A stretch of 64,000 nucleotides of DNA, taken from Escherichia coli (lineage in GTDB: Bacteria > Pseudomonadota > Gammaproteobacteria > Enterobacterales > Enterobacteriaceae). The first letter of the stretch is position 1. The number at the start of each line of letters is the position of its first letter. The DNA is taken from the NCBI RefSeq assembly GCF_001677475.2, contig NZ_CP015229.1; one strand, 5' to 3'. Of the stretch, positions 48,042-64,000 are shown one piece after another. The notes below the pieces were generated by a model that made no database searches, was not told the origin of the DNA, and was given only the letters and a program-made list of their open reading frames with translations. Position numbers and translations under genes: made by a program.

Positions 48042-50358
48042 GCCATTTCCTGTTGGATCATGTAAATGACACTCAGGTTACAAAACCGGCCAGAATAATC
48101 GGCGCCAGGCGGACTGAGTTATTGTCGTCTCATACCTCACCAATAATGCCAGGGAGAATATTGCCGTTAGGATTAAACGCTCGCGAAAGGAAGAGTTTCA
48201 GCGCCCCCATGCCCTCCGATGCTTCAATATCACCAATAACCCGGTTAACAATGGCCGCACTCTTCGGATTAGCATCCGCCAACGCTCTGGCTACAATTTG
48301 CAGGGACGATACGACCTCACGCTGCATATCCGTCCTGATCTCATCAATAAACTCTGGCGTTATGCCGTGCTCTTTAAGAATATCCCTGCCTTCCGCCGTT
48401 ACCCCATCGATATCACCGACATGTTTATTAACCCGACTTTGCAATGCCTTAAATGCCTTCAGAATTCCACGGGAATCATCCGCTTTACTAACGGCCTTCC
48501 TGAATGCTGGCAAGAAGTCTGAGTTAACCTCATTTTGTTGATCGGCCCACTGAATGGAGGCTTCTTTCATCTCGTCCAGAGTCAGATCACCCAACGCGGT
48601 ATGGTCTGTGAATATGAGCGACAACCTCTGAACCATTTCTGCCAATGGTGATGCCGAATGCGCCGCGCTAAGGAATGCTTTCACCCTGGTTGGGCGAATG
48701 GAAAACCAGTCAATAGCTGGTGGCATATCTCCGTTTTGTATCGCCTGCGCTATCTCATCAAAGCCGTCGCGCCCAAGGGAGGATGCGTGATTTAACAATC
48801 CGCGAAGTAACGAATTGCTGATACCGAATAATCGGCACCATTTATTCACGTCGGCAACAGGCATTCGAACAAAATGCGCAAGCACTTGTACAAGCTGTTC
48901 ATCCTGGGGATCTGTACGGGAAAGCAGCCTGATCAGATGAATAATGTCTTTGATGCCGGATGCCCGATGTAATAGCAAGCTGGTATATGGAGCAACACCG
49001 TTGTAACTACCGCCGGAAACGGACTCGAAAAGACCGCCGGATATCCCTTGCATGCCTTCGTTTTCCAGTTCCTGAGACACCTGGCGAAGGATATCCTGTA
49101 ACGACACATCGCCGCCGCCAAACATATCCCCCAGCGCCTGGCCCTGGTGCTGTAACTCATCATTGATACGTTGAGCCATCAACTTAAAGGCGGTGGCCAT
49201 ACGCTTCGCGCTACGGTTATTCGCGACGATGAACAACGCGAGTGCTTTCACTTCCGGGGCCGTTTCGCTGAACATATCCCCCTGAGCAATAACATCGGTA
49301 ATATGCTGGCCTGACTCCTTCGATTGCCTTACCAGGTCTACCGCATCTTTCAATGCCGCCAGCGCCTTTTTATCGAGGCTATCCGCTGTCTCAATGCCAT
49401 CAACAATAGTTGTCACAGCCTGCTTGTGCGCTTCTCCTGATAAAGCCTGCATCTGGACAAAATCATTGGCTGCCGCATTAAGCGCCGTCAGAACATTACG
49501 CATATCCGGATCAGGTTCTTCTGCAACCATCCTTACCAGGCGCGCATCCTTATATGCCTTGGCAAAGATCGCGTTTTGTATACGGTCAACAAGTTGCCGC
49601 GTTGGTCGCCCATCTTCCGTTACAAGGCCAGCAGCCTGTGTGGCACCAACTTGCGTCATGAATCCGCGAATAAACGCGTCATTACTGCGGCTAAGCAGAT
49701 CTCCGCTTTCTGACGGATTAAACAGCGCCATCATCGCCGGTGTTATGCTGTCGGCATCAACAAAAGCCTTTTCACTGGCTGCCATTTCCTGAAGATCAGA
49801 AATATTTGAGTCCTTGGCAAACTGAACGCGGTCAACCTTAGTTAACCGGCGGCGCACCAATACAGGAGCCGTCATTGATTCAACCTTTTCAGGTCGTATG
49901 CCGAATTCGGTCGCATGTTCAATCAGGTACTCACGATACCGATCCGCATTGCCGTCCTGATAGGCTTTAATGATTCCCATGGTCCGTCCATTACCTGACT
50001 CAACGGCATTGTCCTCACCAATTATCGGCGCGCCATGGCTGGATAAACCGGAATCGGTAAGCTGAGCAGGCCGCAAATCTTTGGATATCTGGTTAACCTG
50101 AAGAAGGCTGGATGCGCGGGTCCGGTCGCGCGGCTGAAGTTCCTGGGGATAGTCAGGATTAATTTTCCCATCCAGAGTATTGGATACCAAAAGAGCTGAG
50201 GCATCGACGATATCAAACGCTGTTTTTACCTCGTCTCCCTTCGCTGTCACCACATACGAAACCCGCCCATAATCGGGCAGGTTCTTAAGCAGCTCGATCA
50301 GCGTTTCTATGCTGGTGGCAATTACCACCTGATCGCTTAAGCTCATCCCTGTTACGCC

Positions 50359-50724
50359 TTATGCTGCCTCTTCAATGTTGGCGGCTATCCATGCCGCCGT
50401 GTGCTGTTTAACCTGGTCCAGGTCGATGTATGTGCCAACATATTGACTCAAGTCCTGCAAGGTACCGATAAATGCATCTGTGCTCTGATCGACGAATTTA
50501 TCAGCCAGGAAATCAGCAACCAGTTTTGGCACACCATCATGTTCCGAAGGTTGTTTTTCCTCGCCACTACCACCGCCGGACGCGCCGTACCCCATCTGTT
50601 GCATGATCTGGTCAATTTCATCGCTGATATCCAGCAACTCCATGCCACTCGCGGTAGCAGCTTTGGACATCAGAGAATCCAACTTGTCGCTGAGGTCCAT
50701 TAACTCAATAGCTGATAGTGTCAT
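50359..50724 (-). CDS. small acidic protein (at the P1 ddrA position)
   Basis: 121-aa track ORF between the darA-like and ddrB-like genes. Confidence 0.5.
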   Translation of the reverse strand: MTLSAIELMDLSDKLDSLMSKAATASGMELLDISDEIDQIMQQMGYGASGGGSGEEKQPSEHDGVPKLVADFLADKFVDQSTDAFIGTLQDLSQYVGTYIDLDQVKQHTAAWIAANIEEAA

Positions 50725-52640
50725 GCCGCTACCCCCGCTTTCTGGATTGCTACCAGCAGATCAGCCAGGTGGCGAGCAGCGCCATTAACCAGCTCTTCGT
50801 TTTCCTCAAAACGCCCGGCAGCCTGAAGGGCTGCAATCGCTTCCCGGACATTACCCCGGGCGTTACGGATCTCCGCCATGTCAGTGCTTTGCATATCCAT
50901 CACGTTATTGAGATATTCAATGGCTTTATTAGCCTCTGCATCTGCTTCGCTAACCGTTTCATCAGGCTGTGCCGGGGCAGGTTCTGGCTGAGTAATCTCA
51001 CCGACTTCGGCCTGCAATGCATTGATCATGCTCTGCACCATTTTCTCGGTGCCAGCGCCCCCCGGAAACGCAATATTGGGGAAAGTTTTTTGAAACTGAG
51101 TTTTCAGCATTACGCGGAACTCGTCTGGTGAGCTGGTGGCCAGCTCCAGAGCTTTTTGTGCATATTTGCCAAACGGACCATTAGTAAGTGTCTTCGCCAG
51201 GAAGTCGAAAGAATCCTCGCGAGGCAATAACTTCAGGTCGTACTCACTCATTTGCTGATCAGAAAGCGGGGTATCGTAAGTAGCAATGCCGTAGCGTGCA
51301 TATTCATAATACGGGTCACCTTCATCAGGGCGCGGCAGAATTGCTTTGTTACCTTCAGGTATTGCGCCAGGGGCCGCCGGACGCATTTGCAGGGCATATC
51401 GATATGCACCTACAGAGACTTCTGGTTCAGGCGAAGAGCTACCGGTATCCTCCGCTGGTTCAGGTTCGACGTTTTCCGGTTTATGTTCTTCTGGTTGGAC
51501 CAGGTATTCCGATACATTACCCGCTTTATAGGCTTTAAACAGCTTGCCGATCGCATCTGCCATGTCCACACCCTGTATGGATTTAGCCTTGATCATGTAC
51601 ACGCTGCCATCCGAATCGGTTAACTGGATATACCCTTCGCCGTCCTCAATGAATTGCTTCATTGATGCTCCATTACTGAGCGTCACTTCCCCGTTCATAT
51701 GCATACGATTTTTGATACTGGCAAGGCGATCCGTCAGCGCGCGCGAGTGCCCACCAGTCATCCCCGCTGGATCAATGGTATCGCGCCCACCTGTGCGATT
51801 GAGCTGATCAATCTCCGTCTGCAAACGCTCATTCTCTTCATAAAGAGAATCCGCTTCCGATGCAACAGCGTTAATTTTCTGCTCCAGATCTACCTTCTGC
51901 CCTTCTACCGCTGCCACCTGATCCGCGAGGTCGCTCATGGCATCCTCTTTCTGGTCACTGTCAGCCTGTAGTTGGGTTATTTCATCAACCAGGGCTTTTT
52001 TCTTCTTCTGCGCACGCTGGAATTTTGCCGAGTTTTTCTCTGCAAGGTTGGCAAGTTTCATGGTGACCTGCGCCAGCGTCATATCACGTCCACTCATCGG
52101 AGCAACGGTGTGAGTAACGTCTTTTTTATTCAGTAAGAACTGGAAAGCAACCAGCGTATCGCTATTGGTGATCCGGTTTTCCGCTGTCGGGCTATGAAAC
52201 AGAATGCTGATAGTCTGACCATCACTGAGCGGAATAATGGCTGGCAGGACCGGCAGCCCGTTAACGTTACGTGCCCGGCCAATTTCAGCACCGCCGATCG
52301 CGCGCGCGCCGCTCTGGGCCACCTCCCCCGTTTTATCACTCCCCGCAGAGATTCCGGTACCATTCAGCTTCTGGTTCAATGCCCGGACAAATGCCTGCAT
52401 GGTCCGGTGTAACTGCAAACGAGTAGAACTAATCGCCTCCAGTAAATCCGTAGCACACCAGTGGATCGGCGTGTCATAGAAGAACGTAGCCTCGATTTCC
52501 TCCAGGGTGTTGGATTCCGTCATCAGATAGCGGTCCTCACCGGCCATTAATGCGCGATATTCATCATCAGTCACTGGCGGGGGAAGCACGTCAAGCCCAG
52601 GCTTGATCGTCACCCCTTTATTGATATTTAACTGTTCCAT
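50721..52640 (-). CDS. DarA-like internal head/antirestriction protein
   Basis: 639 aa with central coiled coil; follows the holin/antiholin pair as in the P1 darA operon; assignment by size and order. Confidence 0.6.
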   Translation of the reverse strand: MEQLNINKGVTIKPGLDVLPPPVTDDEYRALMAGEDRYLMTESNTLEEIEATFFYDTPIHWCATDLLEAISSTRLQLHRTMQAFVRALNQKLNGTGISAGSDKTGEVAQSGARAIGGAEIGRARNVNGLPVLPAIIPLSDGQTISILFHSPTAENRITNSDTLVAFQFLLNKKDVTHTVAPMSGRDMTLAQVTMKLANLAEKNSAKFQRAQKKKKALVDEITQLQADSDQKEDAMSDLADQVAAVEGQKVDLEQKINAVASEADSLYEENERLQTEIDQLNRTGGRDTIDPAGMTGGHSRALTDRLASIKNRMHMNGEVTLSNGASMKQFIEDGEGYIQLTDSDGSVYMIKAKSIQGVDMADAIGKLFKAYKAGNVSEYLVQPEEHKPENVEPEPAEDTGSSSPEPEVSVGAYRYALQMRPAAPGAIPEGNKAILPRPDEGDPYYEYARYGIATYDTPLSDQQMSEYDLKLLPREDSFDFLAKTLTNGPFGKYAQKALELATSSPDEFRVMLKTQFQKTFPNIAFPGGAGTEKMVQSMINALQAEVGEITQPEPAPAQPDETVSEADAEANKAIEYLNNVMDMQSTDMAEIRNARGNVREAIAALQAAGRFEENEELVNGAARHLADLLVAIQKAGVAA

Positions 52641-52641
52641 G

Positions 52642-53253
52642 TTAATTTCCTGCTTTCAGTTGCTTAAGACGACGTTTGAGTTCGCCATTCCGTGCCTTTT
52701 CGTTATTGAGTCGGCCCGTCTCCTTATCCAGCTTCGCCCGCAAATCAGTGATCTGCTGTTGATTGAAAGACACCGAATTCTGCGCGGACTTATAAGCGGC
52801 AACCACCTGAGCATTCCGCTGTTTTGCTTCTTGCAGGCGCTGAAAGTTGGATTTAACTGCCGGTTTCTTGTCTACCGGATTGGCAACACGCTTCGCTTTG
52901 GCGATCAGTGATTTCTGGAATTTTGCGGAGTTTTTGCGGGCCGCCTGTCCCATGACGGTACCAAGCGTCTTGATATCCGGCGACTGAGCGTTAGGAATAG
53001 CTTTTCCATTCAGTTTCACAGACGATATATCGCCAGTATCGTTTACCTGTATGGCAAGAATTTGTCCGTCGTTAAGAACCAGCTTTGCGGTTTTAACTTT
53101 AACGCCATCTTTCGTTGTTGCGCGGTTGCTGGAGTCAACCTCAATTACCGTAACACCGGTTTTATTGATCGCCGCGATAAGGGATTTCAGCCCCTTTTCA
53201 TTAACCTGGTCAAAATCGACCGTTGCATACTTATTTTTCGTCATCTGACACAT
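52642..53253 (-). CDS. hypothetical protein (at the P1 hdf position)
   Basis: 203-aa track ORF between the lydB-like and darA-like genes. Confidence 0.5.
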   Translation of the reverse strand: MCQMTKNKYATVDFDQVNEKGLKSLIAAINKTGVTVIEVDSSNRATTKDGVKVKTAKLVLNDGQILAIQVNDTGDISSVKLNGKAIPNAQSPDIKTLGTVMGQAARKNSAKFQKSLIAKAKRVANPVDKKPAVKSNFQRLQEAKQRNAQVVAAYKSAQNSVSFNQQQITDLRAKLDKETGRLNNEKARNGELKRRLKQLKAGN

Positions 53254-53674
53254 CCTGTGCGAGATTTATTACGTAACTTCTGCGGATTTGCTGAGTAACA
53301 GGGAAAATCCGATACAACGGGTTAATGAACGAGTCGCCATGCGTAACCATGACGTTGAAATGCCACAGTCGCTCTCCTTTACCCATATATTCAGTGGGTA
53401 TGTACAACCATTCACTGTTTTCGCCCTGTTCAGCTGACGTCAGACAACGTTGTTCGCCTTCAATCACTGTCGTCGGCTTCTGAACATCGCGGATCCAATA
53501 TCTGACCGTTGCGCCGCGCAAAAACGGGAATTTAGACCGGTATTTGAACGGCACCCGGATGAAACCCGGTTTAATTTCCACATCACCAAGTTCTAAATGC
53601 GTGATGTCCTTGCGTTTTAGCAAATAGCGATCGGCTAAGGCTAACGCAAGAACGCATACACCCCAGCCAATCAT
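53231..53674 (-). CDS. LydB-like (antiholin) protein
   Basis: 147-aa track ORF immediately after the holin-like gene. Confidence 0.5.
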   Translation of the reverse strand: MIGWGVCVLALALADRYLLKRKDITHLELGDVEIKPGFIRVPFKYRSKFPFLRGATVRYWIRDVQKPTTVIEGEQRCLTSAEQGENSEWLYIPTEYMGKGERLWHFNVMVTHGDSFINPLYRIFPVTQQIRRSYVINLAQDVSDDEK

Positions 53675-54000
53675 TTCCCGCCTCCCTTTTTCACCAAACT
53701 TGTAAGAACATTCAGAATGCTATCGATATTCACTCGTTTCATCCCTGAAATCACCTCATGACCGTTATTGCTGGCTATCGTTACCATTAAGTACGTAATT
53801 GATAACTCCCAGCCCTCGTGTTGCCCCAATAGGTACGCCACCGCGCCAGCTGTCACTGCAACAAAGATCTCCGTAACCAATCCCAACAAATTGCCAGACT
53901 GGCGACCGTCTCGGACATCCATCAGGAACGTGCCTATCCCACCAATTACTGAAAGCAGGAGCGCAATAGCAACTGGAGCTAATTCCTGTGTGTCAAGCAC
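53671..54000 (-). CDS. holin (LydA-like)
   Basis: 109 aa with two to three hydrophobic helices and a charged C-terminus; first gene of the operon. Confidence 0.6.
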   Translation of the reverse strand: MLDTQELAPVAIALLLSVIGGIGTFLMDVRDGRQSGNLLGLVTEIFVAVTAGAVAYLLGQHEGWELSITYLMVTIASNNGHEVISGMKRVNIDSILNVLTSLVKKGGGK

Positions 54001-54466
54001 AAGTTCCCTCCTACGTTGTCAGGAGGTAATGGTATGCAAAGTAACTTCTCATCTGGTTGTTCATAATTTGCCAATACATTCGTAAATCAAGTGAAAAACC
54101 CATATTTTGGTTATTCTTAATACAAAATGGCTATTCCAACTACATATCAAAAAAGCAACCACATTCAAAAATGAGTTTCCCCACTGAACTTCTGCAAGAC
54201 AAAAACCAACAAAACCACCTTTTATGGCAAGCAGCCATGCTTCAAGCCAATGTAAAAAACATGGCTTATAAGCTCCACGCCTAACTCCAGTAAGAAATAA
54301 ATAGGTTCCACTAATAATGGACATTAAAAAAATCAAAATCTGCATAAGCTCCTCCCGGATCTAACAAAAATCAAGCAGGAACCTATTCAGATTGTTATTT
54401 CTGTGCATAACGCTTTGTTCTTTAAAATTCGCAGACTCATAAGAACAACGCATTAGAGTAAAAATC

Positions 54467-55027
54467 ATGCTGATCGGCTATGTACGCGTATCAACAAATG
54501 AACAAAACACTGCTTTGCAACGAAATGCCCTTGAAAGCGCAGGATGTGAGCTAATTTTTGAGGATAAGGCGAGCGGCAAAAAGACTGAACGCCCTGGGCT
54601 AAAAAAGGTTTTGCGTATGCTTTCCAGAGGTGACACCCTGGTCGTATGGAAGTTAGATCGTCTTGGGCGCAGCATGCGTCACTTGGTTGTGCTGGTGGAA
54701 GAGCTGCGTGACAGAGGAATTAATTTCCGGAGTCTCACTGACTCTATCGACACCAGTACACCAATGGGGCGTTTTTTCTTTCACGTAATGGGGGCGCTGG
54801 CTGAAATGGAACGCGAGCTTATCGTTGAACGTACACGCGCTGGACTTGATGCAGCTCGCGCAGAAGGTCGAATAGGAGGCCGTCGGCCTAAATACCAAGA
54901 AGAAACATGGCAGCAAATGCGTCGATTGCTGGAGAATGGCATCCCCCGTAAGCAGGTTGCAATCATCTATGATGTTGCTGTTTCCACGCTTTATAAAAAG
55001 TTTCCTGCGTCATCATTTCAATCCTAA
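54467..55027 (+). CDS. cin: Cin serine invertase
   Basis: 186 aa; MLIGYVRVSTNEQ... catalytic Ser and C-terminal HTH typical of the Gin/Hin/Cin family; stop lies inside cixL. Confidence 0.92.
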   Translation: MLIGYVRVSTNEQNTALQRNALESAGCELIFEDKASGKKTERPGLKKVLRMLSRGDTLVVWKLDRLGRSMRHLVVLVEELRDRGINFRSLTDSIDTSTPMGRFFFHVMGALAEMERELIVERTRAGLDAARAEGRIGGRRPKYQEETWQQMRRLLENGIPRKQVAIIYDVAVSTLYKKFPASSFQS

Positions 55028-55044
55028 ACCTTGGTTTAAGAGAA
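55019..55044. other. cixL crossover site of the invertible C segment
   Basis: CAATCCTAAACC-TT-GGTTTAAGAGAA, a 26-bp site with inverted 12-bp arms and AAACC..GGTTT core. Confidence 0.7.
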
Positions 55045-55074
55045 CTCGGTACCAGCGGTGAAAAGATCCCCCTG

Positions 55075-56676
55075 TTGAGCACGGCTAACACATGGAGTGC
55101 GCGCCAGACTTTCAACGGCGGGATCACCGGAGCGCTGACAGGGAACGCCGATACCGCAACGAAATTGAAAACAGCCAGAAACATTAATGGCGTCAGGTTC
55201 GATGGTTCTGGTGACATTAATATCAATACTATGGTATCGCGTGGTCGCGTAACGGCTCTGGGGGCGAATGCACAGGGGACATCCGGGATTCAGCTGTATG
55301 AGGCATACAACAATGGCTACCCTTCCCCCTATGGCAATGTGCTTCACCTTAAAGGTGCCACCGCTGCTGGCGAAGGTGAGTTATTCATTGGCTGGAGTGG
55401 CACGAGTGGTGACCATGCGCCCGTACATATCCGTTCGCGGCGGGATACTGATTCTGCTAACTGGTCTGAATGGGCGCAGGTCTATACGTCAAAAGATTCC
55501 GTTCCCGGCGTTAATGCCAAAGGGAATCAGGACACCTCTGGTAATGCGGCTACAGCGACTAAATTGCAGACAGCATGTACTATTAACGGTGTCTCGTTTG
55601 ATGGTTCTAAAAACATTGAGTTAACGGCGGAAGATTTAAATCTACAGGAATTCATTAATAAAGCAAATAATGCCGTTCAGCGTTCAGGCGATATCTTGTC
55701 CGGCGGGCTTACTTTTGAAAATGACTCAATCCTTGCCTGGATTCGAAATACTGACTGGGCAAAGATTGGATTTAAAAATGATGCCGACAGCGATACTGAT
55801 TCATACATGTGGTTTGAAACAGGCGACAACGGAAATGAATATTTCAAATGGAGAAGCCGCCAGAGCACCACAACAAAAGACCTGATGAATCTTAAATGGG
55901 ATGCTTTGTCTGTCCTTGTTAAAGCCCTTTTCAGCAGTGAAGTAAAAATATCGACAGTCAATGCACTGAGGATATTTAATTCATCTTTTGGTGCTATTTT
56001 TCGTCGCTCTGAAGAATGCCTGCATATCATCCCTACACGAGAGAATGAGGGAGAAAATGGTGATATAGGGCCACTACGCCCCTTTACGCTTAATCTCAGA
56101 ACTGGTCGGATAAGCATGGGGCATGGTCTGGATGTTACAGGAGATATAACAACTAACGCCTGGGTGTATGCAAACAGGTTTGCTATTAATAGTGGCTCAA
56201 CCTCATGGATTGATATGCGAAACCAGAATGTCATTTTTGGTAGAAACGCAGTATCAACAAGTTCTGCGCAGGCTTTGTTAAGACAAGACCATGCAGAACG
56301 CAAATTTTTTGTCGGTGGACTTGGTAACTACCAGTTTGGTTTTTACATGATTAATAATTCAAGGACAGCCAATGGCACCGATGGTCAGGCGTACATGGAT
56401 AATAACGGAAACTGGCTTTGCGGTGCGCAAGTTATTCCCGGCAACTATGGCAATTTTGATTCCAGATATGTGAAAGATGTTCGACTTGGTTCACAGCAAT
56501 ATTATGGAGTGAACAACTGGCAAACATGGAATTTCCAGTGCCCGTCAGGTCATGTATTGTCTGGTATTAATGTTCAGGATACAGGGTCCAACTCTGCCGA
56601 TAATATAGCTGGCGTTTATTACAGACCCGTTCAAAAGTATATAAATGGCACCTGGTATAATGTAGCGAGCGTTTAA
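55075..56676 (+). CDS. alternative tail-fibre C-terminal segment (Sv'-like), currently not fused to the constant part
   Basis: 533 aa beginning inside the inverted repeat ([33 protein letters not shown]...); the apparent TTG start is an ORF-finder artefact. Confidence 0.7.
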
Positions 56677-56677
56677 T

Positions 56678-57205
56678 ATGATGCACTTAAAGAACATAAA
56701 AGCGGGTAACGCTAAAACACTGGAACAGTATGAGTTAACAAAGAAACACGGAGTTATCTGGCTTTACTCTGAGGACGGAAAAAACTGGTATGAGGAAGTG
56801 AAAAACTTTCAGCCAGACACAATAAAGATTGTTTACGATGCAAATAATATTATTGTCGCCATCACTAAAGATGCCTCCACGCTTAACCCTGAAGGTTTTA
56901 GCGTCGTTGAGGTTCCCGATATAACAGCCAACCGCCGCGCTGATGATTCAGGAAAGTGGATGTTTAAGGATGGAGCTGTAGTTAAACGGATTTATACGGC
57001 AGACGAACAGCAACAACAAGCCGAATCACAAAAGGCCGCATTGCTTTCCGAAGCTGAATCAGTCATTCAGCCGCTGGAACGCGCTGTCAGGCTGAATATG
57101 GCAACAGACGAGGAACGCACACGACTGGAAGCATGGGAACGCTACAGTGTTCTGGTCAGCCGTGTGGATACGGCAAATCCTGAATGGCCACAAAAGCCTG
57201 AATAA
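56678..57205 (+). CDS. tail-fibre assembly chaperone (U'-like)
   Basis: 175 aa [10 protein letters not shown]..., paralog of the 57234-57767 protein. Confidence 0.7.
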
Positions 57206-57233
57206 AAATTAAGGCCCGCTATCGGGCCTTGTC

Positions 57234-57767
57234 TCATTCAGGTTGTTCGGGAAATGTTACTGGCAGGCTGGAGGTGTCTGTAGATTCGACTTTCTGCGCA
57301 TAGAGCATCCACTCGGTTAATTTTTGTTTATTCTCGTCGGAAAGGATGCCCAGCCGTAGCTGTGAGTCCCATAGCTGGGTTTTATCCCTGACAAGTTGCA
57401 ACAGGCTTTGCTTTTCATTCTCTGCCTGCTGCCTCTGTTCCTCCTCGGTATAAGTTCGCTTTATCACTACGCCATCTTTGAACATCCATTTACCCGAAAT
57501 ATCAGCCCGGCGATTTGCTGTAATATCAGGAACCTCAACGACGCTTGCGCCTTCTGGATTAATTGCTGAAACATCCTTTTCAATACAAATAATAACGTTG
57601 TTGTGGTCATAGACCATTTTCAACGTATCAGGCTGAAAGTTCTTTTGTTCCTCATACCAGTTTTTCCCATCCTCTGTATAAAGCCATTTGATGTTAAATT
57701 GTTTCGTTAGCTGGTATTGCTCTTTTGTTTTAGGGTTGCCAGCAGTAATATTTTTTAAGTGCATCAT
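57234..57767 (-). CDS. tail-fibre assembly chaperone (U-like), expressed orientation
   Basis: 177 aa [10 protein letters not shown]...; directly downstream of S on the minus strand. Confidence 0.75.
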
Positions 57768-57769
57768 AA

Positions 57770-60691
57770 TTAAATACTCCCCGCGTTATACCACGTTCCA
57801 TTAATGCAATACTGAATTGGCCTTGCCTGAGTTGTATCAATTAATTCATCACGGTTTCCGTTAACTGAACCCGTAACGACATAACCTGACCTGTCAGACC
57901 AGCCGGGACCATTCCATGTCTGAACAGATGACAGACCGCCAAGGCGAATACCTGTAATAAACCTTGAGTTACATTCTGCCTGCGTATATGCACCAACATC
58001 TCCTGCTGATGGCTTGCGTGTTGTGGTGTAAAATTCTGACCAGTCAGCTTCGAATCCGTAACCATCACGCGCTGAACGATAAAAAATACCACCGTTCCTG
58101 TAATTCACGCGGAACTGTACAGCAGGGCAGCTCCCCGTATTCATATTGAAGTGGAGGATTAATGTCGATGCGCCACCAATGATTGCGTTATAGACCCCGC
58201 TATTCCAGTTCCAGCCAACAGCTTTATCATTTCCGACAGTGCTTCCTGTTTGCCCTAAAGCAAATGCAGGTTGCTGATTTTTCGTGTTGTAGTCACGCCG
58301 CCAGCCTGGCGCATAATCTCCACCGTGGTTTATATAAGTAAATTGTGCATTAGTAGTTCCGCCACCGCTGGAAGTGCTTGGTGTTGTTACACGGATGGTC
58401 ATGGCACCTTTATTACCCATAACCTCAATAACGCAACCTGCAAGATGAATAGTTCCACAGCCAGTATCGGTAATAATTTTATTATTGCCGTATGACCATG
58501 AACATTTGCACATCCAGTATGGGTGATTGAATGCCCCTTGAGAATCCAGCCATTCAATCAATTGTGCTGTTGTCCAGTTACCTGCCCCTGTACTAATAGC
58601 ACTGTGAAAAGCGCGACATGCACCAATATTTTTGGTGAAGGTATCTTTTCCTGGAATATCCGCGCCGTTCTGGTTTTTCTGTAATGCTCCTACGGCTAAT
58701 TCTACGGTTTGCTCAAGATTTAAATCTTCCGCCGTTAGCTCAATGTTTTTAGAACCATCAAACGAGACACCGTTAATAGTACGTGCTGTCTGCAATTTGG
58801 TCGCTGTAGCCGCATTACCAGAGGTGTCCTGATTCCCTTTGGCATTAACGCCGGGAACGGAGTCTTTTGACGTATAGATCTGTGCCCATTCGGACCATGC
58901 CGCAGCAGTGCTATCTCTTTTGGATCGAATGAAAGCAGGTGCATGAGCGCCATTTGTGCCACTCCAGCCAATGAGCAACTCGCCTTCACCAGTTGATGCA
59001 GCTCCCTTCAGGTGAAGTACATTCCCGTAAGTCGTCGGATAACCATTGTTGTATGCCTCATACATCTGCAATCCAGTAGCAGCACCTTGCGTTGTACCGG
59101 TAAGCGCAGTAACGCGTCCTCTAGACGTAATTGTTGGTATCGAAATGTTCGTAGAACCATCGAACCTGACGCCATTAATATTTATGGCTGTTTTTAATTT
59201 CGTCGCGGTGTCGGCGTTCCCTGTCAGCGCCCCGGTGATCCCGCCGTTGAAAGTCTGGCGCGCACTCCATGTGTTAGCCGTACTCAACAGGGGGATCTTT
59301 TCACCGCTGGTACCGAGTTCTCTTAAACCAAGGTATTGGATAACGGCCAGTGTGCTTGTTTTAGCCAGAATATCGCGACCGACTGACGTTAAATCAGTCT
59401 GAGCTACCGTATCCTTACCAGTAAAATAAGGCAGTTTGTTTGCACCAGTCGCAAGGGCCGCGAGAGCGGTTAAAGTTGCATCCAGAGGCTGTTTGCCTGC
59501 CAGCGCATTTGTCATTGTTGTCGCAAAGTTCGGGTCATTGCCAAGTGCTGCGGCAAGCTCATTCAGGGTATCAAGAGCTTCTGGTGATGAACCAACCAGT
59601 GCGGATATGGCAGCTCTTACATAAGCGGTCGTAGCAATCTGCGTATTATTTGTGCCCTGTGCGGCGGTCGGCGCAGTAGGGACACCCGTTAATGCAGGGC
59701 TTGCCAAAGGCGCTTTGAGAGCCAGGGCATTGTTGATAGTTGTGCTGAAATTCGGGTCGTTATTGATCGCAGCCGCTATTTCTTTCAGCGTATCCAGTGT
59801 GCCAGGCGCACCGTTGATAAGTGCAGTTATAGCTGCCTTAACAAAGGCTGTATTTGCGATCTGCGTGCTGTTTGTACCTTGCGCTGCCGTCGGCGCGGTT
59901 GGCGTTCCTGTCAGACTCGGGCTTTCTATTGGCGCTTTGGTATCAGCCAGATCCTTTACAGACTTAACGGCTTTAGGGGTCGCCGCCATTGTTTCGCTGT
60001 CGCTGTTAGTTTCGCTACTGAGCTGAACTAATCCCTTTTGCGTTGTGCTTGCATCCTGCGCCGTATACTTGCTTTTTGCCAGATCGTAGGCTTTTTTAAC
60101 TGCCAGCGAACTTGCAGCAACATCACTTCTACTACTGGTTACAGAGTCTGAAATATCAATGCCGATCGTGCGGTTAATACGCTCGGATGTATCAATCATC
60201 TCCTGGGTAATGGCTGATACGCCAGCAGGGATATTCACCGTACAAACAAGCAGCTCCCCATCTCCTAACTGATATGAATCGGTATAGGTTCTGGCAACAA
60301 ATTCAGCCGCATGAATATGTGACGCGGTATTAACCTGATAGGTATCCTCTCCAAGGAGGTATCTTCCCTTCAGCACAATTGCATATTTCTTGCCTGCACT
60401 AAGTGCAAGAGAAATATCCTTACGGTGCTGAATAGTTACCTGGTAGAATTCACCAATATCCACCGACGCCGCGCCTGCGGTTTTATCACCATCCACTGAG
60501 GTGATTAACAGGTTCATCCCACCGCCAGGCTTAGGTAAGAAACCGGCATAAAATCCCGGGTCAACAATCCCCCTGAATTTTCGGTTTAGCGCGGCTGACA
60601 GATATGGTTCGTGGTATTGCACATCAGCCACCAGAGCCAACGACTCGGGTGATGGGGAAGTAACCGATGTGACAACTGTAACGTCATTCAT
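57770..60691 (-). CDS. tail fibre protein S (constant part fused to the Sv variable part)
   Basis: 973 aa from ATG 60691 (AAGGA upstream); track ORF extends to 60778 through an in-frame upstream start overlapping R; crosses cixR. Confidence 0.85.
59318..59343. other. cixR crossover site
   Basis: TTCTCTTAAACC-AA-GGTATTGGATAA, inverted relative to cixL. Confidence 0.7.
59480..59930 (-). repeat. internal tandem duplication (about 2 x 216 bp) within the S gene
   Basis: two consecutive ~72-aa blocks ([59 protein letters not shown]... and [59 protein letters not shown]...); coordinates approximate. Confidence 0.5.
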
Positions 60692-60702
60692 CAAACATAT
60701 CC

Positions 60703-61137
60703 TTATGCTGTAGTCGTGTTTATGGCCATAACTGCGGTATATGTTTTGCCCACATACAGCGAGTCTTCCTGGACACAAATAATGGCGATTGGCTTGTTCT
60801 CGTTATCCAGAACAACCAGAGTGTTGAATGGGTAGTTTTTCCCTTCCTGCAACTGGCTTTGATCAAGGTCCATTCGGACAGTAATTATCCCGCCTGAGTA
60901 GGTTGGGACGAGGTTGATGGTGCAAAATTGACTGGTCAGTTCTGCCAGATCGAAAGCCTTTGGCAGTTCTCCAATCTCATAAGTGCCATCTCCTTTCTTA
61001 GTAACCAGTGAACTGGTACCGAAAACGGCCTTGCTGATTAAAAATCGAGAGCCTTTGTTAATGGACGATTCAGCGCGCCGCTGATAGTAATAGTCCAACA
61101 ACTGACTCTTATAGAGGTTTGTTGAGACGTCAGACAT
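60703..61137 (-). CDS. tail-fibre-associated protein (R-like)
   Basis: 144-aa track ORF immediately upstream of S. Confidence 0.55.
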   Translation of the reverse strand: MSDVSTNLYKSQLLDYYYQRRAESSINKGSRFLISKAVFGTSSLVTKKGDGTYEIGELPKAFDLAELTSQFCTINLVPTYSGGIITVRMDLDQSQLQEGKNYPFNTLVVLDNENKPIAIICVQEDSLYVGKTYTAVMAINTTTA

Positions 61138-61215
61138 GATTTTCCCTAATCAATGTTGTGAAGCCTCATTGTAAGAGAAGTAACTTGTCACCCCGCCCTG
61201 CGGACGGGGTGATTG

Positions 61216-62055
61216 TCAGGCGTCGCTATCCAGCAACAAATCATCTGCGCGTGTGCGATCAAACGTAGGTGTCGCTTTCACAATAGTGCCACCCGGCGTT
61301 GCGGTGATAGGGGCGCTAATCGACGTAACTCCAGTAAGCGAAGTTGTATCCGAAGTTTCAAACCAGCAGAATGCTTTTTCGGTATCAGAAATCTCGTTCA
61401 AGGTGATCATGTCGGCCTGTTCATTTACAACAACCGACAAATAGAGCGTAAGCCCATCAAACACTATATGCAGTGGCAGTAGAGGCTTTACGAACTGATT
61501 AAACTTTCTGAGAATTTCTTCTGTAATTGCTGACTGATCTATCGTGCCAGTAATACCCATTGTCCGGGCCAGGTCGTTTATGGGAATACTGATCATCCCT
61601 CTGGAAGTCAGAAACATCTCGCCGAATGTGCCGCCGGTAGTCTCCAGTGTGCTTTCTGGTATTAGAACTGTGCCATAGGGATGACGCTCAAGGTCCACCG
61701 GTGCATATATCGGATCCCATAAAACAGAAATACCGTTAAATTCGCGGTAAATTGTCTGGTTTATAGGGCGTTCAGTTCCCTTAAAGTGAATCTCATCAAG
61801 ACGCTGTTGTAACAACATCGGAACGGAAGATGAGTTCGACGTTCTGATAGTAAAGAACTGGCCAAGTTCATTTGTCCTGGTCTCCAGATCCTCCTTGCTC
61901 ATGGAAAAAATAGACTTCCGGTTGGTAATTCGCTCCAACCATGGGTCAACAAAGGTATCCATCATTAACTGAACCAAATCAGCCAATGATTTATAGAGCA
62001 ATGACTTTTGCTTAGCTGATGTAAGCCGGTTATTAAACCAGGAACGCTGCATCAC
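61216..62055 (-). CDS. baseplate-region structural protein
   Basis: 279-aa track ORF; 4-nt overlap with the upstream gene. Confidence 0.5.
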   Translation of the reverse strand: MMQRSWFNNRLTSAKQKSLLYKSLADLVQLMMDTFVDPWLERITNRKSIFSMSKEDLETRTNELGQFFTIRTSNSSSVPMLLQQRLDEIHFKGTERPINQTIYREFNGISVLWDPIYAPVDLERHPYGTVLIPESTLETTGGTFGEMFLTSRGMISIPINDLARTMGITGTIDQSAITEEILRKFNQFVKPLLPLHIVFDGLTLYLSVVVNEQADMITLNEISDTEKAFCWFETSDTTSLTGVTSISAPITATPGGTIVKATPTFDRTRADDLLLDSDA

Positions 62056-63485
62056 TCCTCCTCATACGAAATATTAAAGGTGGAGTTTTCTGTATCCAGA
62101 TAAACGAAATCGTAAAAGCCGTTGGACTCATTCCACTCGACAAATTCCAGATAAAAGTCGCGGAAATAACCCAGCGTTTCGATAAATGCCCAAACGTCTT
62201 TTTTCTTAATCAGGATGTACTTGCCGACACGGTTCGGATCAAAGAAAGTTGAGTCACGCCCAAATTTTGTTTCCAGTGCCGACTTCAGCTCATCGGTCAC
62301 GTTCTCAATGGTCAGGCTTGCCGATATCCGCCCGGTGATGGTGATCTTAAAGGGTAGTTTTCTGACCTCTTTATACGAGAATTTCTTGTTCAACTCATTC
62401 GGCACCTTCTTAAAGGCAGCCAGGATCATTTCTTCAAGCTCTGACTGGCTTTTGTTTGGATGCCATCCTGAAATAAATATCCTATTGATATTCCGAATAT
62501 TATAAGCACCATCTAATTTCTCTTGCTGGCCTTCGCCCCATGCCTTTACCCAGGACAGTCCCGGGATGTTACGCACCAGAAAATACGTATAGTCCCCGCC
62601 CCATACGACCTGATCATCATAGGCAAGGTAATATTGTGCACGGTTACGTGTGATCTCCGTTGTTTCAGCATCGGTACCTGCGGTTATAGGTGTCGTTGTC
62701 TTAACTGAAATCAAATTAGCTAAATTAGCCGCAGAATCGACAGGCGTCAGGTTTTGGCCAGCAACCAGGGTTATATCGCCGTTGGTGCACCATACCTTAA
62801 GCGTAATTGTCGAGCCTTCTGGCGGTATTTGCCCAATTAGCCCATCGCCGAATCGAACCCCCAACTGCTCGGATGGTTTATAAAACTCAACGTAGACCTG
62901 GCTTTTACTACCGGCTAACCGGAACATAGTGCTGGAAGACCACTGCGTGGTCTTACCATCGGTCGTCACGAATACTTCCAGCTTATAGCAGACAGCAGTG
63001 AGAGCCTTTGATAACACGACTTCCAGAAATTCTTTGGCTGCCGTAACGGTATATGTCACCTCCTGGATTTCCAACTGTGCCACTTCTACCGTACCGGTGC
63101 CGTCAACCAATCTGCATACATCCATAGTCATGTAAGGGTACTGGTCGTCAGATATTAAAGGCATGTTTTTGGGGATTACCGCTGGAGCATCTTCACTTGT
63201 GGCTGTGATCTCAATCATCCCCGATGACGGTGTTGGCTTGGTACCAACATAACTGTTCGTTTCTGCCGCAGCCAGGATAGAGGAACGCCGCGTCGCAGTC
63301 GATATAAAGCCTTCAGCCAGCGCAGCATCGGCATATTGAAAACACCTGTATACAATCTGGGTAATAAACAATGTCAGCATCGAGACAAATTGAGAGCCGA
63401 CAAACTTCGACCAGAATGAATCTTTCTCGACAAGCTCTTCAAACTCTGCACGAATACTGTCTTTAGTCGGTGTTGTTTTACTCAT
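62052..63485 (-). CDS. baseplate protein (BplA-like)
   Basis: 477-aa track ORF in the structural operon. Confidence 0.5.
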   Translation of the reverse strand: MSKTTPTKDSIRAEFEELVEKDSFWSKFVGSQFVSMLTLFITQIVYRCFQYADAALAEGFISTATRRSSILAAAETNSYVGTKPTPSSGMIEITATSEDAPAVIPKNMPLISDDQYPYMTMDVCRLVDGTGTVEVAQLEIQEVTYTVTAAKEFLEVVLSKALTAVCYKLEVFVTTDGKTTQWSSSTMFRLAGSKSQVYVEFYKPSEQLGVRFGDGLIGQIPPEGSTITLKVWCTNGDITLVAGQNLTPVDSAANLANLISVKTTTPITAGTDAETTEITRNRAQYYLAYDDQVVWGGDYTYFLVRNIPGLSWVKAWGEGQQEKLDGAYNIRNINRIFISGWHPNKSQSELEEMILAAFKKVPNELNKKFSYKEVRKLPFKITITGRISASLTIENVTDELKSALETKFGRDSTFFDPNRVGKYILIKKKDVWAFIETLGYFRDFYLEFVEWNESNGFYDFVYLDTENSTFNISYEEE

Positions 63486-63838
63486 AGCACCACGTCCTGT
63501 GTGATAGTTATATCCCTGATACGAATGGATATTTTCAACTTATCAAAAGCATCTCCCTCGGCTACTGACAAGCCAGAAATCGGTATGTCGGGTAAATCTA
63601 CCGTCAGTTTTTGCAAAAGCATTGCCTCAACCGCAATTTGAACATACGACAAGTTGGTCGGTTCGTGTTTAAACTGCGGTAAAACATTGCCCCATGACGG
63701 ATCTCCGTATACCTCACCCTGATAAGTGTTTAGCCACTCATATAAACGAGCGCCCCAGGCCTCCTCCTGGGACTCATACGTTTTTACGCCGGATAACTCC
63801 AGCGTCAGTAAAGGATCAATTTCGTTATTGTTGGCCAT
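63482..63838 (-). CDS. small structural-module protein
   Basis: track ORF 63482-63841 trimmed to ATG 63838. Confidence 0.5.
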   Translation of the reverse strand: MANNNEIDPLLTLELSGVKTYESQEEAWGARLYEWLNTYQGEVYGDPSWGNVLPQFKHEPTNLSYVQIAVEAMLLQKLTVDLPDIPISGLSVAEGDAFDKLKISIRIRDITITQDVVL

Positions 63839-64000
63839 CAATCAACTCTCGCGTAGTCATTCATCAACGGATCATCAATTGACAGTGGCACCGTGCGCAT
63901 AACGCCCGGTTGAGGCGTGCTGACCTTTACGACAGTTCCCTGGCCTTTCGCCGAGTCTTTGGTGTGCTCTTCAATCCTGGCAAGCAATGAGGTCATCTGC
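63838..64000 (-). CDS. 3' end of an upstream structural gene (partial, runs off the window end)
   Basis: open minus-strand frame from the window edge ending ...PLSIDDPLMNDYARVD-stop, overlapping the next start. Confidence 0.4.
   Translation of the reverse strand, partial: QMTSLLARIEEHTKDSAKGQGTVVKVSTPQPGVMRTVPLSIDDPLMNDYARVD

Follow-up and report, generated by a model that had tools for sequence, protein, structure and literature searches.

The locus analysed here, part of a 64,000-nucleotide stretch of Escherichia coli DNA (the window), can be read with a probability of about 0.93 as the classic host-range switch known from P1/P7-like phage-plasmids (Punavirus), a DNA inversion that exchanges the tip of the tail fibre. 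The system is already known and is ordinary for this phage family, and the present copy looks intact. The switch has flipped in nature, and the prophage most likely carries it in working form. The initial annotation had proposed an invertible C segment with Cin and cix sites, and this proposal holds: Cin, two cix sites and both tail-fibre modules are present as in P1 and P7 (Table 1).

Invertases of the Gin/Hin/Cin/Pin family pair inverted sites, cut the core and flip the segment between them. By homology, Cin would pair the two inverted 26-bp cix sites, cut at the central TT and flip the 4.3-kb segment, aided by a Fis-dependent enhancer that lies within cin. Outside the segment are LPs (the late promoter), R and the constant part of S (Sc), so that each orientation joins Sc in frame to one 3' part. 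The matching tail-fibre chaperone gene then lies downstream of the Sc fusion in either orientation, and a common hairpin between the convergent chaperone genes would end the operon. In the present state, Sc is joined to the homologue of P1 Sv'/U' (and Mu S'/U'), and the Sv/U-like module at cin is silent.

Components of the switch

Table 1. Features of the C-segment region, in window coordinates.
Feature	Position	Strand	Basis or remark
cin, serine DNA invertase, 186 aa	54467-55027	+	ORF, Pfam domains, P1/P7 identity
Putative recombinational enhancer, 5' part of cin	54485-54556	+	by homology
cixL, 26 bp	55019-55044	+	identical to P1 and P7 cixL
Crossover dinucleotide TT of cixL	55031-55032	+	position per P7 annotation
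cixR, 26 bp	59318-59343	-	inside S coding sequence, encodes ..IQYLGLRE..
Invertible C segment, 4.3 kb	55031-59331	.	found exactly inverted elsewhere
cin-side arm, P1-type	55019-55643	+	96.5% identical to P1 repeat
Sc-side arm	58716-59343	-	central block ~58896-59152 is the P7 allele
Arm block A	55030-55209		96% nt, 98% aa identity between arms
Arm block B	55210-55463		63% nt, 65% aa identity between arms
Arm block C	55464-55643		96% nt, 97% aa identity between arms
Silent S 3' part	55033-56676	+	adjoins cin; without own start codon
Silent tail-fibre assembly chaperone, 175 aa, P1 U type	56678-57205	+	Pfam Caudo_TAP 8.7e-38
GC-rich hairpin between convergent chaperone genes	57211-57230	.	likely terminator, either orientation
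Expressed-position chaperone, 177 aa, P1 U' type	57234-57767	-	Pfam Caudo_TAP 1.1e-36
S tail-fibre gene as assembled, 973 aa	57770-60691	-	Pfam Phage_fiber_2
Sv'-type variable part of S	57770-59329	-
Sc, constant part of S	59332-60691	-
R, tail-fibre gene	60703-61137	-	upstream of S, shared operon; P7 annotation
Putative late promoter LPs (-22 box and -10), driving R-S-U	61168-61186	-	by homology

The gene for Cin adjoins the segment, and the protein carries Pfam Resolvase (3.8e-51) and HTH_7 (2.4e-18) domains. It is identical to P7 Cin at 185 of 186 positions and to P1 Cin at 184, the substitutions relative to P1 being T40 and N157, and an NCBI exact-protein look-up places the same sequence on 228 contigs. 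The putative enhancer of the C-segment system in the 5' part of cin matches the one annotated in P1 (AF234172) at 69 of 72 positions and lies at an equal offset within the gene.

The two 26-bp sites that had been proposed, one at the end of cin and an inverted one inside S, both lie at the predicted positions and are letter-for-letter the annotated cixL and cixR of P1 and P7. cixL reads CAATCCTAAACC-TT-GGTTTAAGAGAA and takes in the final 9 nt of cin, stop codon included, so that cin ends within it. On the minus strand cixR reads TTATCCAATACC-TT-GGTTTAAGAGAA; the sites agree at 22 of 26 positions, share the TT core and do not differ at all in their inner half-sites. No third cix-like core was found within the 64-kb window, where four other near-matches are at chance level.

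The segment holds two alternative S 3' ends in opposed directions, each with its own chaperone gene, and R, the late promoter and Sc all lie outside it. The open reading frames agree with the earlier description of a constant S part fused to one variable part and followed by its chaperone gene: S reads in frame through cixR, and a 177-aa chaperone gene comes next. The Sc-fused module is 89% identical in nucleotides to P1 Sv'-U' over the full 2.1 kb and its chaperone equals P1 U' in length; judged by homology to P1 and Mu it is of the Sv'/U' (C(-)/G(-)) type, which makes the window C(-) in P1 terms. The initial annotation had called this expressed module Sv/U, a name that homology reverses. That label was positional only and agrees with usage in the P7 GenBank record. 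Because Sv and Sv' are positional labels in the P7 record and homology-based ones for P1, copied orientation calls can be inverted. Our statements on C(+)/C(-) and on the 0.62-kb repeat draw on GenBank annotations, our own comparison and general knowledge.

The silent module is, by the same kind of comparison, P1 Sv/U-like. Its S part is P1 Sv-like at the 5' end and differs from P1 in the middle, where it matches the cin-side part of P7; its chaperone gene is 91% identical in nucleotides to P1 U and, as in P1 U, encodes 175 aa. A sequence scan found neither a start codon nor a promoter-like site belonging to this module, as expected from its earlier description as promoterless. A sigma-70 promoter scan gave no pertinent hit, with 3 sites found where 11.7 were expected; the late promoters of P1 belong to another type, and LPs was therefore located by homology instead. 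We infer promoter activity for LPs from its match to the annotated P1 LPs at 18 of 19 positions. R carries Pfam Phage_P1_tail_fiber_R, precomputed on an identical locus. The hairpin has a T-rich tail after its stem on the minus strand, and this structure likely terminates the operon in both orientations.

Inversion in nature and the position of the crossover

Window positions 49770-64000, or 14.2 kb, recur at 100% identity and in the same orientation in a public E. coli assembly (locus L008). In another E. coli assembly (locus L007; GCA_051060675.1, contig ABZLKR010000022.1) positions 55031-59331 are exactly inverted with 0 mismatches, the flanks are identical over 50197-60891 and the outer cix half-sites have stayed with the flanks. 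The two orientations were thus seen in different isolates, not in one population. Both fusion proteins exist as exact NCBI sequences: the assembled 973-aa S, an intact ORF, is WP_071906130.1, and the likewise intact 1001-aa S produced by in-silico inversion is EPD5392061.1. Searching for the exact protein predicted from an inverted segment proved an inexpensive stand-in for read-level data on inversion.

These observations bear on whether the locus is a frozen relic, in which arm divergence or changes in Cin stopped inversion and only the Sv'-type fibre is made. The arms are imperfect, unlike those of P1, and Cin has its two substitutions relative to P1. However, independent assemblies carry this very segment both ways round with 0 mismatches, conservation extends to the cix sites and the enhancer, and exact Cin recurs on the many contigs counted above. 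P7 has arms shorter still, at ~150 bp, yet its record annotates the segment as invertible. We regard a relic as very unlikely.

The inverted isolate also locates the crossover. All seven differences between the arms in block A travelled with the segment in L007, which places the exchange within 55028-55079, an interval of 52 bp that includes the cix core. Host homologous recombination by RecA between near-identical arm blocks, rather than Cin at cix, would have had identical runs of 52, 50, 62 and 44 bp in blocks A and C to act upon. But neither block B nor any of the seven block-A differences was exchanged, an even distribution of crossovers along the ~360 near-identical bp would put only about one in seven inside those 52 bp, and Cin is intact with its sites and enhancer present. 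Taken together these points make RecA highly improbable as the agent of the switch, and we favor a model in which Cin acts at cix. The initial annotation had likewise confined recombination to cix, a view that the inverted isolate and its 52-bp interval sustain. Its reasoning from the divergence of the arms does not follow, because the length of the arms does not matter to Cin, which in P1 acts at cix despite perfect 0.62-kb arms.

Further comparisons add less. In two E. fergusonii plasmids of 122,823 bp each, which carry the same cix sites, an exact inversion of 4,280 bp is the sole difference over the 7.5 kb compared; their arms are identical over ~450 bp, so that Cin and RecA are indistinguishable in this pair, which is supporting evidence only. 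When the in-silico inverted junction of cin and the Sc-side arm was compared with PLSDB, a P7-type arm was found to adjoin cin in CP057742 (95.2% identity), a weak control, given that the Sc of CP057742 is a different one and that its second cix site has no exact match. Full-length BLAST relatives among phages, plasmids and complete E. coli genomes are at best 94-96% identical and thus unfit as same-element controls.

Mosaic arms

The arms align over ~625 bp (55019-55643 against 59343-58716) with mosaic identity. The perfect identity of P1-type arms over ~0.6 kb was not found here, the values being 96%, 63% and 96% for blocks A, B and C. Near-identity had been thought to end after ~190 bp, with similarity further in only at the protein level. 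Neither statement stands: block C, overlooked at the time, returns to 96% in nucleotides, and beyond 55644 there is no relatedness between the two variable parts at the protein level either (24% aa identity). Perfect 0.62-kb arms are not defining for the wider family, because those of P7 match over such a short distance.

On the cin side, the arm matches plasmid p3 of E. coli EC02 at 100% identity. Positions 58832-59232 of the Sc-side arm are 98-100% identical to P7 and only 64-74% identical to EC02 p3. Synonymous differences affect 34 of the 56 codons conserved in block B, which argues for an old allele and not recent decay. Judged from these comparisons, the divergence of the arms is a sharply bounded replacement by a P7 allele rather than gradual decay. 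The mosaic is an instance of tail-fibre mosaicism, and the cix sites are unaffected. Blocks A and C retain identical stretches of 44-62 bp, which could support rare RecA-dependent exchange. The product of a RecA-dependent crossover inside the first identical 52 bp would be identical to Cin's.

Invertible segments with repeats classically yield chimeric short-read contigs, and mosaic arms could in principle arise from merged reads, through mixed orientations or two co-resident P1-like elements. Plasmid NZ_CP016549.1 of strain O177:H21 shows four matching places, and one listed Cin accession may come from that strain. Against such an assembly artefact, an independent assembly is 100% identical over 14.2 kb, the reciprocal inverted form is internally consistent, and the diverged block is a genuine P7 allele, found at ≥95% identity in 17 PLSDB plasmids. 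We find this explanation scarcely credible.

Divergence of one arm only is a common finding in P1-like plasmids. The P1-type central block occurs at 237 places in 160 PLSDB plasmids, about half of which seem to have two copies, and 64 further PLSDB plasmids carry the P7-type or a third allele. That arm heterogeneity is a maintained polymorphic trait, and not neutral mosaicism, seems to us doubtful. If it were so, arm-to-arm gene conversion could recur and be countered by imported alleles, and diverged central blocks might be favoured by suppressing RecA-dependent inversion or conversion, leaving Cin as the sole switch. Alternatively, diverged blocks might give the two fibres different shaft segments.

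Relation to known switches and meaning

A close parallel is P7 (AF503408), which has the same gene order and deposited orientation as the window as well as identical cixL and cixR. The Sc-side arm, including its diverged central block, is 98-100% identical between the two, and the expressed modules are 92.6% identical over 2.1 kb; the distal part, at ~58300-58600, reaches only 70-83% identity to P7 and EC02 p3, which were the closest relatives compared. The cin-side part of P7 is without ~280 bp of the arm, whereas the window has a full P1-type 625-bp cin-side arm that restores the second near-identical block. In addition, the gene in the U position is split into Ua and Ub in P7 and is one intact 177-aa ORF here. 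P1 (AF234172) has the same system, with identical cix sites, homologues of both modules and arms of ~0.62 kb. Its record is deposited in the opposite orientation, with Sc fused to the module that is silent in the window. The P1 arms are ~100% identical over ~570 bp, then 93% and 83%, ending near 625 bp, and it is the central 255 bp, only 63% identical, that sets the window apart.

The G segment of Mu is also invertible and has two S 3' ends with U and U' chaperones, and it shares ~90% nucleotide identity with the window over the distal Sv-U-U'-Sv' core (55687-58687). Mu has an invertase of the same serine class as Cin, encoded by gin and acting at gix sites, but its repeats are only 34 bp long and its Sc is unrelated to that of P1; the window, unlike Mu, has a P1-like genome throughout. 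In the Min system of p15B several crossover sites and a large number of gene segments take part, in contrast to exactly two sites and two modules here, and a multiple-inversion system of that kind is ruled out by the presence of just two cix cores in 64 kb. p15B is a P1-related plasmid in which a Cin-family invertase switches tail-fibre 3' ends (PMC5786510, PMC6906374).

Beyond annotation, the significance of this locus is small. The assembled state of the prophage encodes an S'/U'-type fibre; the S'/U' fibre of P1 transduces Shigella flexneri 2a and 5a and E. coli O3, with the O-antigen involved (bioRxiv 10.1101/2022.07.24.501295).

The C segment in two orientations

By its overall similarity, the whole 64-kb window represents a P1-like (Punavirus) phage-plasmid genome, with P1-like phages 97-98% identical to its first 50 kb over the aligned ~70-76%. 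The best annotated matches of the locus studied here are RCS47 and P7 (~94.5% identity, 92% of 6.4 kb covered). Its C segment, the DNA between cixL and cixR that the invertase Cin is predicted to flip, swaps the 3' end of S together with a chaperone gene. Cin is identical to the P1 protein at 184/186 residues and to that of P7 at 185/186. The cix sites share the TT core and identical inner half-sites and are letter-for-letter those annotated in P1 and P7. A search of the 64-kb window for cix cores found no site beyond these two, which lie in inverted orientation exactly where the initial annotation had placed them. All P1/P7 switch parts are present and conserved, and both fusion frames are open.

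Features of the locus under study (lydC, cin, C segment, S, R, gene 16), in plus-strand coordinates
Feature	Coordinates	Strand	Description
cin	54467-55027	+	186-aa serine recombinase; Pfam Resolvase + HTH_7
Recombinational enhancer (predicted)	54485-54556		inside cin; 69/72 match to enhancer annotated in P1 cin
cixL	55019-55044		CAATCCTAAACC-TT-GGTTTAAGAGAA; overlaps cin stop codon
S 3' part without start codon	55033-56676	+	adjoins cin
Arm block A	55030-55209		identity 96% nt, 98% aa
Arm block B	55210-55463		identity 63% nt, 65% aa
Arm block C	55464-55643		identity 96% nt, 97% aa
Beyond arms	55644 onward		identity 41% nt, 24% aa (no similarity)
Second Caudo_TAP chaperone gene	56678-57205	+	175 aa
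GC-rich hairpin	57211-57230		between convergent chaperone genes; perfect 8-bp stem, AAGGCCCG..CGGGCCTT
Caudo_TAP chaperone gene after S	57767->57234	-	177 aa
S, as now assembled	60691->57770	-	973 aa, read through cixR
cixR	59318-59343	-	TTATCCAATACC-TT-GGTTTAAGAGAA; within S reading frame
R	60703-61137		upstream of S
Late promoter LPs (predicted)	61168-61186		beyond R; 18/19 match to P1 LPs

The evidence for inversion comes from exact-sequence look-ups in public assemblies and NCBI proteins, and the orientations come from different isolates. Inverting the segment in silico between the TT cores yields an intact 1001-aa S, composed of the constant 5' part (Sc) and the silent part, which exactly matches EPD5392061.1, just as native S matches WP_071906130.1. 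The contig encoding native S, from GCA_033692955.1, is 100% identical to window 49770-64000 with orientation unchanged. The one encoding the inverted fusion, from GCA_051060675.1, carries 55021-59341 reversed; its only four mismatches (55025, 55027, 59335 and 59337) fall in the outer half-sites of cix, which remain with the flanks. Within the inverted 55031-59331 there is none, and flank identity extends from 50197 to 60891. The arm differences at 55080 and six more block A positions all moved with the segment, and the crossover therefore fell within 55028-55079, 52 bp that contain the cix core. In addition, two 122,823-bp Escherichia fergusonii plasmids from different Japanese isolates (NZ_AP028829 and NZ_AP028849), which have the same cix sites, show a single difference across the 7.5 kb compared, an exact inversion of 4,280 bp between these sites, with no mismatch in segment or flanks.

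These comparisons show one and the same element in either state and map the exchange to cix. The natural occurrence of both orientations, together with the intact switch parts, contradicts a frozen switch. An assembly artefact is likewise contradicted, as independent assemblies are identical and the P7 allele described below is authentic. By analogy with what is established for the Gin/Hin/Cin/Pin invertases, Cin and the Fis-bound enhancer would bring both cix sites into synapsis, Cin would cut at the TT core and strand rotation would follow, after which LPs would drive R, S and whichever chaperone gene stands downstream. Inversion by RecA-dependent recombination is possible in principle, since identical runs of 44-62 bp persist in the arms, but is disfavoured: the mapped interval would catch only ~1/7 of evenly spread crossovers by chance. 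The E. fergusonii pair cannot separate Cin from RecA because its arms are identical over ~450 bp. Confinement of recombination to cix, as proposed earlier, cannot be deduced from arm divergence, because Cin acts at cix whatever the arm length and the identical runs are still open to RecA; divergence can only reduce RecA-dependent exchange.

An NCBI look-up also placed the exact native S on a 5,498,453-bp contig, which is either a P1-like element integrated or assembled into one E. coli chromosome or a concatenated record.

Mosaic arms of the inverted repeat

Alignment of 55019-55760 with the reverse complement of 58600-59343 revealed mosaic arms of ~625 bp, as long as the 0.62-kb repeats of P1. 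The initial annotation had limited near-identity to ~190 bp next to cix, overlooking block C, and had described the remainder as similar only as protein, a description that suits block B alone, where protein identity barely exceeds nucleotide identity, and no other part of the arms. Of the 56 block B codons whose amino acid is conserved, 34 show synonymous differences. In P1 the arms have essentially 100% identity along ~570 bp and in P7 they match over ~150 bp only; the 96/63/96% mosaic of the window is intermediate between them. A 78-nt direct repeat (71-72% identity) encoding the motif GNA(D/A)TATKL(K/Q)TA..ING(V)(R/S)FDGS occurs once in block A (55141-55218) and once in block C (55540-55617), mirrored in the other arm at 59144-59221 and 58742-58819; the conserved blocks thus coincide with the motif, its two copies being separated by the diverged block.

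On the cin side the arm is of P1 type: it shares 96.5% identity with the P1 repeat and 100% with plasmid p3 of E. coli EC02, in which the two arms agree at 99.7%. Across 58832-59232 the Sc-side arm is 98-100% identical to P7 and only 64-74% to EC02 p3, and by this measure it carries the P7 allele. Sharp borders together with synonymous differences at saturation point to an old allele having been brought in, not to gradual decay away from cix; the asymmetry of the arms is ordinary tail-fibre mosaicism. Among PLSDB plasmids, the P1-type central block occurs at 237 places in 160 plasmids, and may lie in both arms of about half of them; the P7-type block occurs in 17 at at least 95% identity and a further allele in 45 at 80-90% identity. 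From these counts, one-sided arm divergence is therefore common among P1-like plasmids.

The expressed module and the S operon

Against the annotated P1 record, the expressed module is 89% identical to Sv'-U' over all 2.1 kb, and its chaperone has the same length as U', 177 aa. The silent module begins with 911 nt at 93.6% identity to P1 Sv, has a middle that matches P7 in its cin-side part, and carries a chaperone gene sharing 91% identity with P1 U (175 aa in both). On this homology the expressed module is the P1 Sv'-U' counterpart and the silent module is Sv/U-like, and the window is therefore C(-) in P1 nomenclature. The label "Sc-Sv/U" in the initial annotation holds only positionally, as in the P7 GenBank record, and fails by homology to P1. 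Along the distal stretches of the two modules, the plus strand of the window is colinear with the Mu record; in the orientation we take that record to have, this fits a G(+)-like silent and a G(-)-like expressed module.

The P7 record (AF503408) gives the name "Sv, C(+)" to the variable part next to Sc, which by homology corresponds to Sv' in P1 (AF234172), and the record's "Sv prime" is P1 Sv-like. Since these labels are positional in P7, they do not carry over from one record to the other. The P7 record also splits the chaperone at 4037-4570 into an ORF Ua of 282 nt and an ORF Ub of 252 nt, whereas its counterpart in the window is one intact 177-aa ORF; the P7 record may contain a frameshift or sequencing error there. 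Within the distal expressed Sv'-type region, 58232-58632 shares only 70-83% identity with each of the closest relatives, P7 and EC02 p3, against 95-100% identity to one or the other on either side, and has the look of a third allele, situated in what is probably the receptor-binding part.

The hairpin in the 28-bp gap between the chaperone genes lies where it could end transcription of the S operon whichever way the segment points, and has a clear T-rich tail on the minus strand only. Another GC-rich inverted repeat, at 61187-61212 (CACCCCGTCCGCAGGGCGGGGTG, minus strand), lies directly upstream of LPs between gene 16 and R and may act as a terminator or have a regulatory role. The silent module lacks an S start codon, and a promoter scan found no promoter-like site directed into it; low-level read-through from cin is conceivable.

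Altogether, this is a textbook C-segment switch whose sequence is already in public assemblies, and the additions made here are purely descriptive: a 96/63/96% mosaic repeat, an orientation label to correct, and two states in different isolates.
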